This document shows positions 53,638-57,351 of a stretch of 64,000 nucleotides of DNA, one piece after another (positions within the stretch are counted from its first letter, which is position 1; every line of letters begins with the position of its first letter). The notes beneath the pieces were generated by a model, which saw only the letters and a list, made by a program, of their open reading frames with translations, did no database searches and was not told the DNA's origin. This DNA is from Escherichia coli. GTDB taxonomy: Bacteria > Pseudomonadota > Gammaproteobacteria > Enterobacterales > Enterobacteriaceae. The position numbers and the translations under genes are program-made. Location: the NCBI RefSeq assembly GCF_013315695.1, contig NZ_CP054353.1; one strand, 5' to 3'.

Positions 53638-54111
53638 ATGCCAAATATTGTTTTAAGTCGGATTGATGAACGCTTGATTCACGGTCAGGTCGGCGTTCAG
53701 TGGGTCGGATTTGCGGGGGCAAATCTGGTGCTGGTAGCCAACGACGAGGTTGCCGAAGATCCGGTACAACAAAACCTGATGGAAATGGTACTGGCAGAAG
53801 GGATCGCCGTACGTTTCTGGACGCTGCAAAAAGTCATCGACAACATTCATCGCGCCGCCGATCGACAGAAAATCCTGCTGGTTTGTAAAACACCTGCCGA
53901 TTTCCTGACGCTGGTGAAAGGTGGCGTTCCGGTGAATCGCATTAACGTTGGCAATATGCACTACGCCAATGGCAAGCAACAAATCGCCAAAACGGTTTCT
54001 GTGGATGCGGGTGATATCGCAGCATTTAACGACCTGAAAGCCGCTGGGGTGGAATGCTTCGTTCAGGGCGTCCCGACAGAGCCTGCTGTGGACCTCTTTA
54101 AATTACTTTGA
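53638..54111 (+). CDS. agaV: PTS N-acetylgalactosamine-specific IIB component
   Basis: ORF 53602..54111; start at MPNIVLSRIDERLIHGQVG gives 157 aa. Confidence 0.85.
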   Translation: MPNIVLSRIDERLIHGQVGVQWVGFAGANLVLVANDEVAEDPVQQNLMEMVLAEGIAVRFWTLQKVIDNIHRAADRQKILLVCKTPADFLTLVKGGVPVNRINVGNMHYANGKQQIAKTVSVDAGDIAAFNDLKAAGVECFVQGVPTEPAVDLFKLL

Positions 54112-54121
54112 GGGATTCATC

Positions 54122-54901
54122 ATGGAAATCAGTCTGTTGCAGGCATTCGCGTTGGGCATTATCGCCTTTATCGCTGGCCTGGATATGTTTAACGGCCTAA
54201 CCCATATGCACCGCCCGGTGGTCCTCGGCCCGTTGGTCGGACTGGTACTTGGCGATCTGCATACCGGTATTTTAACCGGCGGTACGCTGGAACTGGTGTG
54301 GATGGGGCTGGCCCCGCTGGCGGGCGCACAGCCGCCTAACGTGATTATCGGTACTATCGTCGGCACGGCGTTTGCCATTACTACTGGCGTGAAACCCGAT
54401 GTCGCGGTCGGTGTCGCCGTACCTTTCGCTGTCGCAGTACAGATGGGGATTACCTTCCTGTTCTCGGTGATGTCCGGCGTGATGTCCCGCTGCGACCGGA
54501 TGGCGGAGAACGCCGATACACGCGGCATTGAACGCGTGAACTATCTGGCACTGCTGGCACTCGGCACGTTCTATTTTCTCTGCGCTTTCCTGCCTATCTA
54601 CTTCGGCGCAGAACATGCAAAAACCATCATTGATGTCCTGCCGCAACGATTAATCGACGGCCTCGGCGTCGCGGGCGGCATCATGCCAGCAATCGGTTTT
54701 GCCGTGTTGCTGAAAATCATGATGAAAAACGTCTACATCCCCTACTTCATCCTGGGCTTTGTTGCCGCAGCCTGGCTCAAGTTACCGGTGTTGGCTATTG
54801 CTGCCGCTGCGCTGGCGATGGCGCTGATCGACTTGCTGCGTAAATCTCCTGAACCGACTCAACCTGCGGCACAGAAAGAGGAATTTGAAGATGGCATCTA
54901 A
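54122..54901 (+). CDS. agaW: PTS GalNAc-specific IIC component (full length)
   Basis: 259-aa polytopic ORF, uninterrupted. Confidence 0.85.
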   Translation: MEISLLQAFALGIIAFIAGLDMFNGLTHMHRPVVLGPLVGLVLGDLHTGILTGGTLELVWMGLAPLAGAQPPNVIIGTIVGTAFAITTGVKPDVAVGVAVPFAVAVQMGITFLFSVMSGVMSRCDRMAENADTRGIERVNYLALLALGTFYFLCAFLPIYFGAEHAKTIIDVLPQRLIDGLGVAGGIMPAIGFAVLLKIMMKNVYIPYFILGFVAAAWLKLPVLAIAAAALAMALIDLLRKSPEPTQPAAQKEEFEDGI

Positions 54902-55769
54902 TCAAACTACCCTGCCGAACGTCAGTGAAAACGAAGAAACACTGCTGACTGGCGTCAATGAAAACGTGTATGAAGATCAGAGTATTGGCGCGGAGCTGAC
55001 GAAAAAAGATATCAACCGCGTCGCCTGGCGTTCCATGCTGTTACAAGCGTCTTTTAACTACGAACGTATGCAGGCTTCCGGCTGGTTGTACGGTCTGCTG
55101 CCTGCTCTGAAAAAGATCCACACTAATAAACGCGACCTGGCGCGCGCCATGAAGGGGCATATGGGTTTCTTCAATACCCATCCGTTTCTGGTGACGTTTG
55201 TTATCGGCATTATCCTTGCGATGGAGCGTTCTAAGCAGGACGTTAACAGTATTCAGAGCACCAAAATTGCCGTCGGTGCGCCGCTCGGCGGGATTGGCGA
55301 TGCGATGTTCTGGCTAACGCTACTGCCGATTTGTGGCGGGATAGGCGCAAGCCTCGCGCTACAAAGCTCTATTCTTGGCGCAGTCGTCTTTATTGTGCTG
55401 TTCAACGTGGCGCATCTCGGTTTGCGTTTTGGTCTTGCACATTATGCTTACCGCATGGGCGTGGCGGCGATTCCACTCATTAAAGCAAATACCAAAAAAG
55501 TCGGCCATGCGGCATCTATCGTTGGGATGACGGTAATCGGCGCGCTGGTGGCAACCTATGTTCGTTTAAGCACCACGCTGGAAATCACAGCGGGCGACGC
55601 AGTGGTTAAGTTACAGGCTGATGTTATCGACAAACTGATGCCTGCCTTCTTACCACTGGTCTACACCCTGACCATGTTCTGGCTGGTACGCCGCGGCTGG
55701 AGTCCGCTGCGCCTGATTGCGATTACCGTGGTTCTCGGCATCGTCGGTAAATTCTGCCATTTCCTTTAA
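54891..55769 (+). CDS. agaE: PTS GalNAc-specific IID component
   Basis: ORF 54885..55769; ATG at 54891 (MASNQTTLPN) gives 292 aa. Confidence 0.85.
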   Translation: MASNQTTLPNVSENEETLLTGVNENVYEDQSIGAELTKKDINRVAWRSMLLQASFNYERMQASGWLYGLLPALKKIHTNKRDLARAMKGHMGFFNTHPFLVTFVIGIILAMERSKQDVNSIQSTKIAVGAPLGGIGDAMFWLTLLPICGGIGASLALQSSILGAVVFIVLFNVAHLGLRFGLAHYAYRMGVAAIPLIKANTKKVGHAASIVGMTVIGALVATYVRLSTTLEITAGDAVVKLQADVIDKLMPAFLPLVYTLTMFWLVRRGWSPLRLIAITVVLGIVGKFCHFL

Positions 55770-55786
55770 ATACAATGAGGTATTAG

Positions 55787-56221
55787 ATGTTAAGTATTAT
55801 TTTGACAGGGCATGGCGGATTTGCCAGCGGCATGGAAAAAGCAATGAAGCAAATTCTCGGTGAGCAATCGCAGTTTATCGCCATCGATTTTCCGGAAACC
55901 TCAAGCACCGCGCTGCTTACATCGCAGCTTGAAGAGGCCATCGTCCAACTGGATTGTGAAGACGGCATTGTTTTTCTGACGGATTTGCTGGGCGGCACGC
56001 CGTTTCGCGTAGCTTCAACGCTGGCGATGCAAAAACCGGGCTGTGAAGTGATCACCGGCACCAATTTGCAACTGCTACTGGAGATGGTGCTGGAGCGCGA
56101 AGGGTTAAGCGGTGAAGAGTTCCGTGTGCAGGCGCTGGAGTGTGGACACCGTGGGCTGACCAGTCTGGTGGACGAGTTAGGCCGCTGCCATGAAGAATGT
56201 CCGGTCGAGGAAGGAATATGA
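55787..56221 (+). CDS. agaF: PTS GalNAc-specific IIA component
   Basis: 144-aa ORF recognised as AgaF. Confidence 0.85.
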   Translation: MLSIILTGHGGFASGMEKAMKQILGEQSQFIAIDFPETSSTALLTSQLEEAIVQLDCEDGIVFLTDLLGGTPFRVASTLAMQKPGCEVITGTNLQLLLEMVLEREGLSGEEFRVQALECGHRGLTSLVDELGRCHEECPVEEGI

Positions 56222-57351
56222 CACACGTTCTGCGCGCCAGAAGGCTGCTGACTGAAGAGGGATGGCTCGATGACCATCAGTTGCGTATTGCTGACGGTGT
56301 AATCGCAGCAATCGAACCGATTCCAGTGGGCGTGACTGAACGCGATGCGGAACTGCTCTGCCCCGCTTACATCGACACCCATGTACACGGTGGTGCGGGC
56401 GTTGATGTAATGGATGACGCGCCGGATGCGCTCGACAAGCTGGCAATGCACAAGGCACGCGAAGGTGTCGGCAGTTGGTTACCGACCACCGTAACCGCGC
56501 CGCTTAATACCATTCATGCGGCGCTGAAACGTATTGCTCTACGCTGCCAGCGTGGCGGACCTGGTGCGCAAGTGCTGGGGAGTTATCTCGAAGGACCGTA
56601 CTTCACGCCGCAGAATAAAGGCGCGCATCCGCCGGAGCTGTTTCGCGAGCTGGAAATTGCCGAGCTGGATCAATTGATTGCCGTTTCTCAGCACACCTTG
56701 CGCGTGGTAGCGCTGGCACCAGAAAAAGAAGGGGCATTGCAGGCCATCCGCCATCTTAAACAGCAAAACGTACGGGTGATGCTGGGGCATAGCGCGGCGA
56801 CCTGGCAACAAACCCGTGCCGCGTTTGACGCTGGTGCCGACGGCCTGGTGCATTGCTATAACGGGATGACAGGTTTACATCACCGCGAACCGGGAATGGT
56901 TGGCGCGGGATTAACGGACAAGCGCGCCTGGCTGGAACTGATAGCCGATGGTCATCATGTACATCCGGCGGCGATGTCGCTGTGTTGTTGCTGTGCGAAA
57001 GAGAGAATCGTGCTGATCACCGACGCGATGCAGGCAGCCGGGATGCCGGATGGTCGCTATACGTTATGTGGTGAAGAAGTGCAGATGCACGATGGCGTTG
57101 TCCGTACCGCGTCCGGTGGGCTGGCGGGCAGTACGCTGTCTGTCGATGCGGCAGTGCGCAACATGGTCGAGTTGACGGGCGTAACGCCTGCGGAAGCCAT
57201 CCATATGGCATCGCTGCATCCGGCGCGTATGCTGGGTGTTGATGGTGTTCTGGGATCGCTTAAACCGGGCAAACGCGCCAGCGTCGTTGCGCTGGATAGC
57301 GGGCTGCATGTGCAACAAATCTGGATTCAGGGTCAATTAGCTTCGTTTTGA
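56218..57351 (+). CDS. agaA: N-acetylgalactosamine-6-phosphate deacetylase (full length)
   Basis: ORF 56197..57351; start at MTHVLRARRLL gives 377 aa; overlaps agaF stop (ATGA). Confidence 0.85.
   Translation: MTHVLRARRLLTEEGWLDDHQLRIADGVIAAIEPIPVGVTERDAELLCPAYIDTHVHGGAGVDVMDDAPDALDKLAMHKAREGVGSWLPTTVTAPLNTIHAALKRIALRCQRGGPGAQVLGSYLEGPYFTPQNKGAHPPELFRELEIAELDQLIAVSQHTLRVVALAPEKEGALQAIRHLKQQNVRVMLGHSAATWQQTRAAFDAGADGLVHCYNGMTGLHHREPGMVGAGLTDKRAWLELIADGHHVHPAAMSLCCCCAKERIVLITDAMQAAGMPDGRYTLCGEEVQMHDGVVRTASGGLAGSTLSVDAAVRNMVELTGVTPAEAIHMASLHPARMLGVDGVLGSLKPGKRASVVALDSGLHVQQIWIQGQLASF

Follow-up and report, generated by a model that had tools for sequence, protein, structure and literature searches.

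In Escherichia coli K-12, a 2.3-kb deletion results in an Aga- Gam- phenotype, and E. coli C is Aga+ Gam+ (Brinkkötter et al. 2000; Hu et al. 2013, PMC3668189). Among the genes concerned, agaS is essential for the use of N-acetylgalactosamine (GalNAc) (PMC3668189), and agaA is dispensable, as nagA can take over its role during growth on GalNAc (Hu et al. 2013, PMC3668189). A single substitution, Gly91Ser in AgaF, renders O157:H7 spinach-outbreak isolates Aga- although every ORF is intact (PMC3668189). The intact state of the locus is already known to be the norm and K-12 the exception (Brinkkötter 2000; Hu 2013). Here, we describe this locus in a stretch of E. coli DNA of 64,000 nucleotides, referred to as the window.

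The agaVWEFA block is undamaged

The block comprises the following genes, all with family matches in the NCBIfam collection:

53638-54111, plus strand: agaV, PTS EIIB(Aga), 157 aa; matches NF008508 over positions 1-157 of 157
54122-54901, plus strand: agaW, PTS EIIC(Aga), 259 aa; matches NF040757
54891-55769, plus strand: agaE, PTS EIID(Aga), 292 aa; matches NF040760 over positions 1-292 of 292; absent from K-12
55787-56221, plus strand: agaF, PTS EIIA common to the Aga and Gam systems, 144 aa; matches NF040761 over positions 1-144 of 144; absent from K-12
56218-57351, plus strand: agaA, GalNAc-6-P deacetylase of the NagA family, 377 aa; matches TIGR00221

The five ORFs are contiguous, and each has an ATG start, a single terminal stop and no internal stop, with a Shine-Dalgarno-like GAGG/AGGA 6-10 nt upstream. 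agaW and agaE overlap by 11 nt, agaF and agaA by 4 nt (ATGA). All five CDS boundaries agree with the RefSeq annotation of AF3, a genome with a 100%-identical block. The four PTS components (IIB, IIC, IID and IIA) are all full-length ORFs with end-to-end equivalog matches, and the bit scores compare with the curated cut-offs as follows: AgaV 319.9 vs 180, AgaW 410.8 vs 300, AgaE 613.7 vs 500, AgaF 217.5 vs 130 and AgaA 289.2 vs 225.65, the last match spanning positions 5-379 of the 380 in TIGR00221. The sequence-only reading had described agaW, agaE, agaF and agaA as full length and contiguous, and the ORFs, the family models and the RefSeq boundaries bear this out. The RefSeq label 'nagA' at this locus denotes agaA.

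The histidine of IIA and that of the IIB motif RIDxRLxHGQ are established phospho-acceptors in this PTS family. AgaF His9 aligns with the active-site histidine of IIA-Man (structures 1pdo/1vsq; equivalent to IIA-Man His10), and His15 in the RIDERLIHGQ motif of AgaV aligns with the conserved histidine of the AgaB structure 3eye. Residue 91 of AgaF is the wild-type Gly. In AgaA, the motifs DTHVHGG, LEGPY, LGHS, VHCYNGM and ITDAM align with solved NagA structures (B. subtilis and human), and the metal-binding and catalytic motif set of NagA/AgaA (HxH, E, H, H, D) is present. Over the five genes, the codon differences from E. coli C comprise 82 synonymous and 10 nonsynonymous changes, indicating purifying selection on agaVWEFA. 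An intact GalNAc PTS and deacetylase had also been claimed, and ORFs, models, motifs and alignments support this at the sequence level. As judged by these features, agaVWEFA is the ordinary, undamaged wild-type E. coli gene set predicted to import and deacetylate GalNAc.

K-12 carries a derived deletion

Alignment with an MG1655 derivative defined the segment that is lost in K-12:

54498-56802, no strand assigned: segment deleted in K-12, 2305 bp

The alignment confirmed the earlier statement that K-12 lacks the region from the 3' end of agaW to the 5' end of agaA. The loss runs from agaW codon 126 to agaA codon 195 and takes the 3' part of agaW, agaE, agaF and the 5' part of agaA, so that K-12 retains agaW codons 1-125 and the last approximately 182 codons of agaA. 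The segment is flanked by near-identical, imperfect direct repeats of 10 bp, CGCTGCGACC (54488-54497) and CGCGGCGACC (56793-56802); a search for repeats of at least 14 nt at the K-12 deletion endpoints yielded none. In the K-12 junction, CGCTGCGACC is followed directly by TGGCAAC, fusing agaW codon 125 to agaA codon 196. This junction is missing from the window, where all 2305 bp are present. We conclude that the K-12 state is derived by a 2305-bp deletion between 10-bp direct repeats. The proposed comparison with K-12, E. coli C and O157:H7 likewise found the block intact and near-identical to that of the Aga+ strains.

The remaining GalNAc genes and their regulation

The other genes of the GalNAc branch and the predicted AgaR sites are located as follows:

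51277-52086, minus strand: agaR, DeoR-type repressor, 269 aa; identical to AgaR of K-12, E. coli C and O157:H7
52103-52126, 52198-52221 and 52280-52303, no strand assigned: three predicted AgaR operator consensus matches in the agaR-kbaZ spacer
52335-53615, plus strand: kbaZ (agaZ), tagatose-bisphosphate aldolase subunit, 426 aa; NF012002, 896 bits
57549-57572 and 57627-57650, no strand assigned: two predicted AgaR operator consensus matches upstream of agaS
57702-58856, plus strand: agaS, GalN-6-P deaminase/isomerase, 384 aa; TIGR02815, 629 bits
58869-59729, plus strand: kbaY (agaY), tagatose-bisphosphate aldolase catalytic subunit, 286 aa; NF009375, 663 bits

The consensus used is the one reportedly described for AgaR operators by Ray & Larson (2004). 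It matched five times in the window compared to 0.18 expected matches, and the location of all five within two promoter spacers supports the consensus. By these matches, agaR, kbaZ, agaS, kbaY and the predicted operators are intact. A scan with the sigma-70 consensus gave fewer matches than in shuffled sequence, so that neither PZ nor PS could be placed, and an Rfam scan of the window yielded no match in the aga region and only rnpB elsewhere.

The galactosamine branch is probably inactivated by IS1

Downstream of kbaY, the cluster is interrupted:

59866-60633, minus strand: IS1 copy 2, 768 bp, separating kbaY from what remains of agaB; labelled IS1A in the annotations of AF3 and MSB1_4I
60634-60844, plus strand: agaB remnant, residues 90-158 only; annotated as a pseudogene in MSB1_4I
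60883-61686, plus strand: agaC, intact ORF; codon 8 is Gln, not amber
61676-62467, plus strand: agaD, intact ORF
62468-63235, plus strand: agaI, intact ORF; codon 72 is Gln, not amber

The left 9-bp target copy of this IS1, AAAAATTAT, is present and the right copy is lost. A deletion of approximately 305 bp adjacent to the element took the ribosome-binding site of agaB and residues 1-89, including the histidine of RIDNRLVHGQ. The junction between IS1 and the truncated agaB is shared only with MSB1_4I, of which the window is a near-clone; in AF3, agaB is intact and the IS1 lies upstream of it. Twelve genes of the 13-gene aga/gam cluster (E. coli C type) are intact and agaB is broken; the cluster is thus not complete. 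The galactosamine branch (AgaBCD) is probably dead, as the sequence suggests, and truncation of agaB by IS1 and the adjacent deletion leads to a predicted Aga+ Gam- phenotype. This lesion lies 2.5 kb downstream of agaVWEFA in the same regulon and did not appear in the sequence-only reading.

Proposed GalNAc pathway and phenotype

In the proposed pathway, phosphate would be passed from HPr to AgaF (EIIA) and on to AgaV (EIIB), and AgaW and AgaE (EIIC/EIID) would import GalNAc as GalNAc-6-P. Deacetylation by AgaA would yield GalN-6-P, which AgaS would deaminate and isomerise to tagatose-6-P, and after a further phosphorylation the product would be cleaved by KbaY/KbaZ. Both operons, kbaZ-agaVWEFA and agaS, would be repressed by AgaR through operators located in the two promoter spacers. 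The pathway also needs ptsH, ptsI, pfkA and nagA, which are located outside the window.

Intact ORFs, conserved catalytic motifs, near-identity to Aga+ strains and the operator matches argue for a wild-type branch. We therefore consider it highly probable that the window carries a wild-type GalNAc branch predicted to be functional, that the K-12 state is derived, and that the Gam branch is inactivated by IS1, with Aga+ Gam- as the predicted phenotype. From the sequence, we infer that the strain would grow on GalNAc.

Alternatively, the ORFs may be intact and the pathway silent owing to a missense, regulatory or polar effect, as in the GalNAc-negative O157:H7 spinach-outbreak isolates, where Gly91Ser in AgaF provides the precedent (PMC3668189). 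Substitutions relative to characterised Aga+ strains include AgaF A53V, AgaE G159S/V174A/V278I and AgaA G292D, among which AgaF A53V, AgaA G292D and AgaE G159S are lineage-specific, and IS1 sits 136 nt downstream of kbaY, where it might influence how stable the agaS-kbaY transcript is. However, AgaF Gly91 is wild type, the catalytic motifs are conserved, AgaA is dispensable anyway, and the last gene required for GalNAc precedes the IS1. Furthermore, the RefSeq WP numbers of these protein alleles are common to several genomes, and the 82:10 ratio of synonymous to nonsynonymous changes argues for continuing selection. We regard a silent pathway as unlikely and favour the functional branch.

Two IS1 copies bracket the GalNAc branch

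A second insertion is located upstream, in garD:

48003-48770, minus strand: IS1 copy 1, 768 bp, interrupting garD 77 nt into the gene; found in neither AF3 nor MSB1_4I

This copy is flanked by a 9-bp target duplication, TGTGGCAAT, at 47994-48002 and 48771-48779. The garD::IS1 junction was found in none of the RefSeq complete genomes, and the window strain therefore differs from MSB1_4I. IS1 copies 1 and 2 are both complete, are 99.7% identical and bracket the whole GalNAc branch in direct orientation.

This arrangement would be expected of a 12.6-kb composite transposon resembling Tn9, or of a cassette prone to deletion, with the GalNAc branch and the prlF-yhaV toxin-antitoxin genes as cargo, the more so as the enclosed agaR, kbaZ, agaVWEFA, agaS and kbaY are all the aga genes that GalNAc needs and include no Gam-only genes. 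The two elements, however, were acquired in separate events: copy 1 is flanked by a duplication of its own and does not occur in the near-clone MSB1_4I, while AF3 already carries copy 2, with a different duplication. In addition, the segment was found nowhere else, matches labelled as E. coli plasmids being chromosomal sequence, and the garD::IS1 junction is unique. A composite element is thus very improbable, and we give equally little credence to the accidental packaging of a self-sufficient GalNAc module together with prlF-yhaV into a transposable 12.6-kb element, or to its loss in one step. Were the segment such an element, one-step loss by IS1-IS1 recombination would be more probable than transposition and would give rise to Aga- segregants in this IS1-rich clone.

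Prevalence and significance

Among complete E. coli genomes, the intact agaVWEFA block was found in 4929 of 5426 (90.8%), and the K-12-type junction in 371 (6.8%). The 3714-bp block recurs at 100% identity in four independent complete genomes, which makes a sequencing error unlikely, and is collinear in the 4929; that the intact block is an assembly or sequencing artefact is contradicted by both observations and has a negligible probability. Only 51 records carry an allele at least 99% identical, IAI39 and CE10 among them. The intact block had been regarded as informative for lineage; this was overstated at such a prevalence, since intactness excludes only K-12-like strains, and lineage is much better read from the sequence of the allele. 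A plasmid location of agaVWEFA in E. coli was also considered and rejected, as the four 'plasmid' matches were mislabelled chromosomes of 4.8-4.9 Mb or a 354-kb chromosomal fragment.

An intact agaVWEFA is the normal state of E. coli, and knowledge of the K-12 deletion dates back to 2000; the finding is therefore of little consequence in itself. Its value lies in the corrected annotation (nagA to agaA), in the prediction of Aga+ Gam- for the clone, and as a reminder that K-12 is an atypical reference. In this lineage, genes are still being lost through IS1; the lesions in agaB and garD are minor signs of this process, by which very close relatives, namely the window strain, MSB1_4I and AF3, can be distinguished.

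Comparison with known systems

The locus most closely resembles that of E. coli C (ATCC 8739), which shares the gene order agaR / kbaZ-agaVWEFA / agaS-kbaY-agaBCDI and the site, from yhaV to rsmI/yra. Identity is complete for AgaV, AgaW and AgaR and at least 98.6% for the other proteins, with four substitutions in AgaE, one in AgaF (A53V) and five in AgaA; the agaA-agaS spacer is also of the E. coli C type. In contrast to E. coli C, agaB is truncated by IS1 and a deletion, the upstream garD is interrupted by IS1, the fimbrial genes yraHIJK are missing after agaI, and the last approximately 14 residues of AgaI differ. In K-12, the locus and its flanks are the same and, apart from the deletion, 96-98% identical in nucleotide sequence, but the 2305 bp present in the window are lacking.

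O157:H7 EDL933/Sakai (Aga+ Gam-) belong to the same predicted phenotype class, with agaVWEFA intact and the galactosamine branch broken, and AgaW of O157:H7 is also identical to that of the window. The lesions differ: in O157:H7, codon 8 of agaC and codon 72 of agaI are amber, and in the window the 5' part of agaB has been lost in association with IS1. With the mannose-family PTS (ManXYZ; TC 4.A.6), the Aga system shares the four-component IIA/IIB/IIC/IID architecture and the phospho-His residues, and the solved structures of IIA-Man and IIB-Man can be aligned with AgaF and AgaV, respectively. Unlike in ManXYZ, IIA and IIB are separate polypeptides, AgaF is shared by two transporters, and the specificity is for GalNAc.

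The agaVWEFA block and the K-12 deletion

The genes for the N-acetylgalactosamine (GalNAc) PTS and for the deacetylase AgaA were identified from the ORF list and by direct translation:

53638-54111, + strand, agaV (EIIB), 157 aa
54122-54901, + strand, agaW (EIIC), 259 aa
54891-55769, + strand, agaE (EIID), 292 aa
55787-56221, + strand, agaF (EIIA), 144 aa
56218-57351, + strand, agaA (deacetylase), 377 aa

Each of the five starts with ATG preceded by a Shine-Dalgarno-like sequence and has a single stop codon at its end. agaW and agaE overlap by 11 nt, and agaF and agaA by ATGA; such overlaps are typical for translationally coupled operon genes. 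In the RefSeq annotation of AF3 (NZ_OZ547117.1), a genome 100% identical across this stretch, the same gene boundaries and names occur, agaA carrying the generic label 'nagA'. NCBIfam models matched all five proteins at full length and above their curated cut-offs. The sequence-only reading of the block as five contiguous full-length genes was thus borne out.

Alignment of an MG1655 derivative to the window yielded matches at 48771-54497 and 56793-59865 and none between them. At the K-12 junction (...CGCTGCGACC|TGGCAAC...), two direct repeats of 10 bp with a single mismatch between them are joined:

54488-54497, direct repeat CGCTGCGACC, left endpoint of the K-12 deletion
56793-56802, direct repeat CGCGGCGACC, right endpoint of the K-12 deletion

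The deletion corresponds to window positions 54498-56802 (2305 bp) and removes agaW from codon 126 onward, the whole of agaE and agaF, and codons 1-195 of agaA. This gap has been published as the '2.3 kb deletion' and renders K-12 unable to use GalNAc (Aga-) or galactosamine (Gam-) (PMC3668189; PMC9628945; both citing Brinkkötter et al. 2000), and the alignment and both papers confirm that K-12 lacks the region from the agaW 3' end through the agaA 5' end.

Frequency of the intact block and relatives of the strain

The 3714 bp of the block were queried against 5426 complete E. coli genomes. The block was intact (at least 80% covered in a single collinear place) in 4929/5426 genomes (90.8%), while a 240-bp probe spanning the K-12 junction detected it in 371/5426 (6.8%), among the matches listed mostly laboratory derivatives with a few field isolates, e.g. 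TUM12357; 110/5426 (2.0%) had no match to the block. Given 4929 intact genomes versus 371 with the junction, the intact block is the common, not an unusual, condition in E. coli and presumably the ancestral one. It is the ordinary wild-type state, already well described, to which we add its frequency among complete genomes, the precise ends of the K-12 deletion, checks of functional residues, and the nearby loss of agaB and garD through IS1. The suggestion that the intact block is informative for lineage is overstated, as intactness only excludes K-12-like strains. The sequence of the allele carries more lineage information: only 51 records are at least 99% identical to it. Four records are 100% identical (AF3, two other OZ5469xx isolates, and MSB1_4I), and the block is ~99.0% identical in IAI39, CE10, and IMT16316, which we take to be phylogroup F. 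The garD IS1 aside, the window differs from MSB1_4I by 7 mismatches across ~63 kb, and the strain is a near-clone of MSB1_4I.

An agaVWEFA block ~80% identical to that of E. coli occurs on several conjugative plasmids (~170-190 kb) of Klebsiella pneumoniae. E. coli 'plasmid' matches were rejected as chromosomal sequence tagged plasmid in PLSDB (e.g. NZ_MG591698.1). Between exuR and exuT, presumably adjacent in K-12, MSB1_4I harbors a four-gene CS1/CFA-type fimbrial operon (29401-34501; chaperone, major subunit, TcfC-like usher, CfaE/CblD-type tip adhesin), which by collinear alignment would correspond to ~15300-20400 of the window. The sole Rfam match in the window was rnpB (RNase P RNA, class A; 42860-43236, - strand).

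Function of the GalNAc branch

Compared to E. coli C (ATCC 8739), a reference strain whose Aga+ Gam+ phenotype has been established by experiment, AgaV, AgaW, and AgaR show no differences, while AgaE differs at 4 residues, AgaF at one (A53V), and AgaA at 5; differences to one O157:H7 genome were similar. Pooled over the five genes, 82 synonymous and 10 nonsynonymous codon differences occur relative to E. coli C, a ratio characteristic of purifying selection. In alignments to solved IIA-Man and IIB-type structures, AgaF His9 and AgaV His15 coincide with the histidines that are phosphorylated, and the AgaA motifs HxH, Glu, His, His, and Asp align with their counterparts in solved NagA enzymes. 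The lineage-specific AgaA substitution G292D is located in a variable loop, and human NagA likewise has Asp there. Residue 91 of AgaF is Gly; it was Gly91Ser that abolished GalNAc use (Aga-) in the O157:H7 isolates of the 2006 spinach outbreak (PMC3668189). The remaining GalNAc branch (agaR, kbaZ, agaS, kbaY) is also intact. agaS is essential for GalNAc use and agaA is dispensable, as nagA substitutes (Hu et al. 2013, PMC3668189); the intact deacetylase therefore contributes little to the phenotype. Full-length ORFs, near-identity to E. coli C, and conserved motifs support an intact GalNAc PTS and deacetylase at the sequence level, and the strain is predicted to be GalNAc-positive.

The agaR-kbaZ and agaA-agaS spacers match those of E. 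coli C in length and are distinguished from them by substitutions only. Scanning the whole 64-kb window with the AgaR operator consensus, reportedly that of Ray and Larson (2004), gave 5 matches versus 0.18 expected, three in the agaR-kbaZ spacer and two upstream of agaS. As the matches fall in these two spacers, they support both the consensus and the presence of regulatory sites. A ~40-bp patch (57464-57500) in the 350-bp agaA-agaS spacer occurs as two alternatives that do not differ in total length, one common to the window and E. coli C, the other to K-12 and O157:H7; it could be a small element that was inverted or replaced.

IS1 insertions and loss of the galactosamine branch

Two lesions near the block had been overlooked in the sequence-only reading:

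48003-48770, - strand, IS1, second copy, 77 nt into garD (galactarate dehydratase); 47994-48779 including duplications
59866-60633, - strand, complete IS1, downstream of kbaY, between kbaY and agaB
up to 60844, agaB remnant, residues 90-158 only, 3' of the IS1 at 59866-60633

The garD copy is flanked by its own 9-bp duplication TGTGGCAAT and is missing from AF3 and MSB1_4I; a search of the complete E. coli genomes in RefSeq did not find its junction. The element probably inserted very recently, and a galactarate-negative phenotype is predicted for the strain. The two copies share orientation and differ at 2/768 positions (99.7% identical); they are independent insertions. Together they bracket 12.6 kb (48003-60633) comprising garD', prlF-yhaV, agaR, kbaZ, agaVWEFA, agaS, and kbaY, the aga genes inside being exactly the GalNAc branch. 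Formally, this segment is a Tn9-like composite structure and also a substrate for IS1-IS1 deletion. No second copy of it was found in RefSeq complete E. coli genomes or among plasmid matches, and its mobility is a low-probability curiosity.

In AF3, the same agaB-side IS1 lies inside the kbaY-agaB spacer with a 9-bp target duplication AAAAATTAT, and agaB is intact. In the window and MSB1_4I, the right-hand duplication is missing along with ~305 bp, and IS1 directly adjoins agaB codon 90, an arrangement typical of adjacent deletions promoted by IS1. What is left of agaB has neither a ribosome-binding site nor residues 1-89, among them the histidine of RIDNRLVHGQ, so that EIIB(Gam) is lost. agaC, agaD, and agaI remain intact, with none of the amber codons of O157:H7. 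Since the 5' part of agaB is lost and these three genes are located behind IS1, the galactosamine branch is probably non-functional. IS1 in or beside agaB recurs across many unrelated E. coli genomes, at varying distances and with varying IS1 subtypes, which suggests a hot spot for IS1 insertion in the AT-rich kbaY-agaB spacer.

Similarity to K-12 stops ~43 nt before the agaI stop codon, so that AgaI (255 aa; 251 aa in E. coli C) has ~14 different C-terminal residues. In the window, agaI is directly followed by rsmI (63192-63285); the fimbrial operon yraHIJK, located after agaI in K-12, E. coli C, and O157:H7, is missing.

The predicted phenotype of the strain is Aga+ Gam-. O157:H7 EDL933 belongs to the same class, but the lesion in the window is of another kind.
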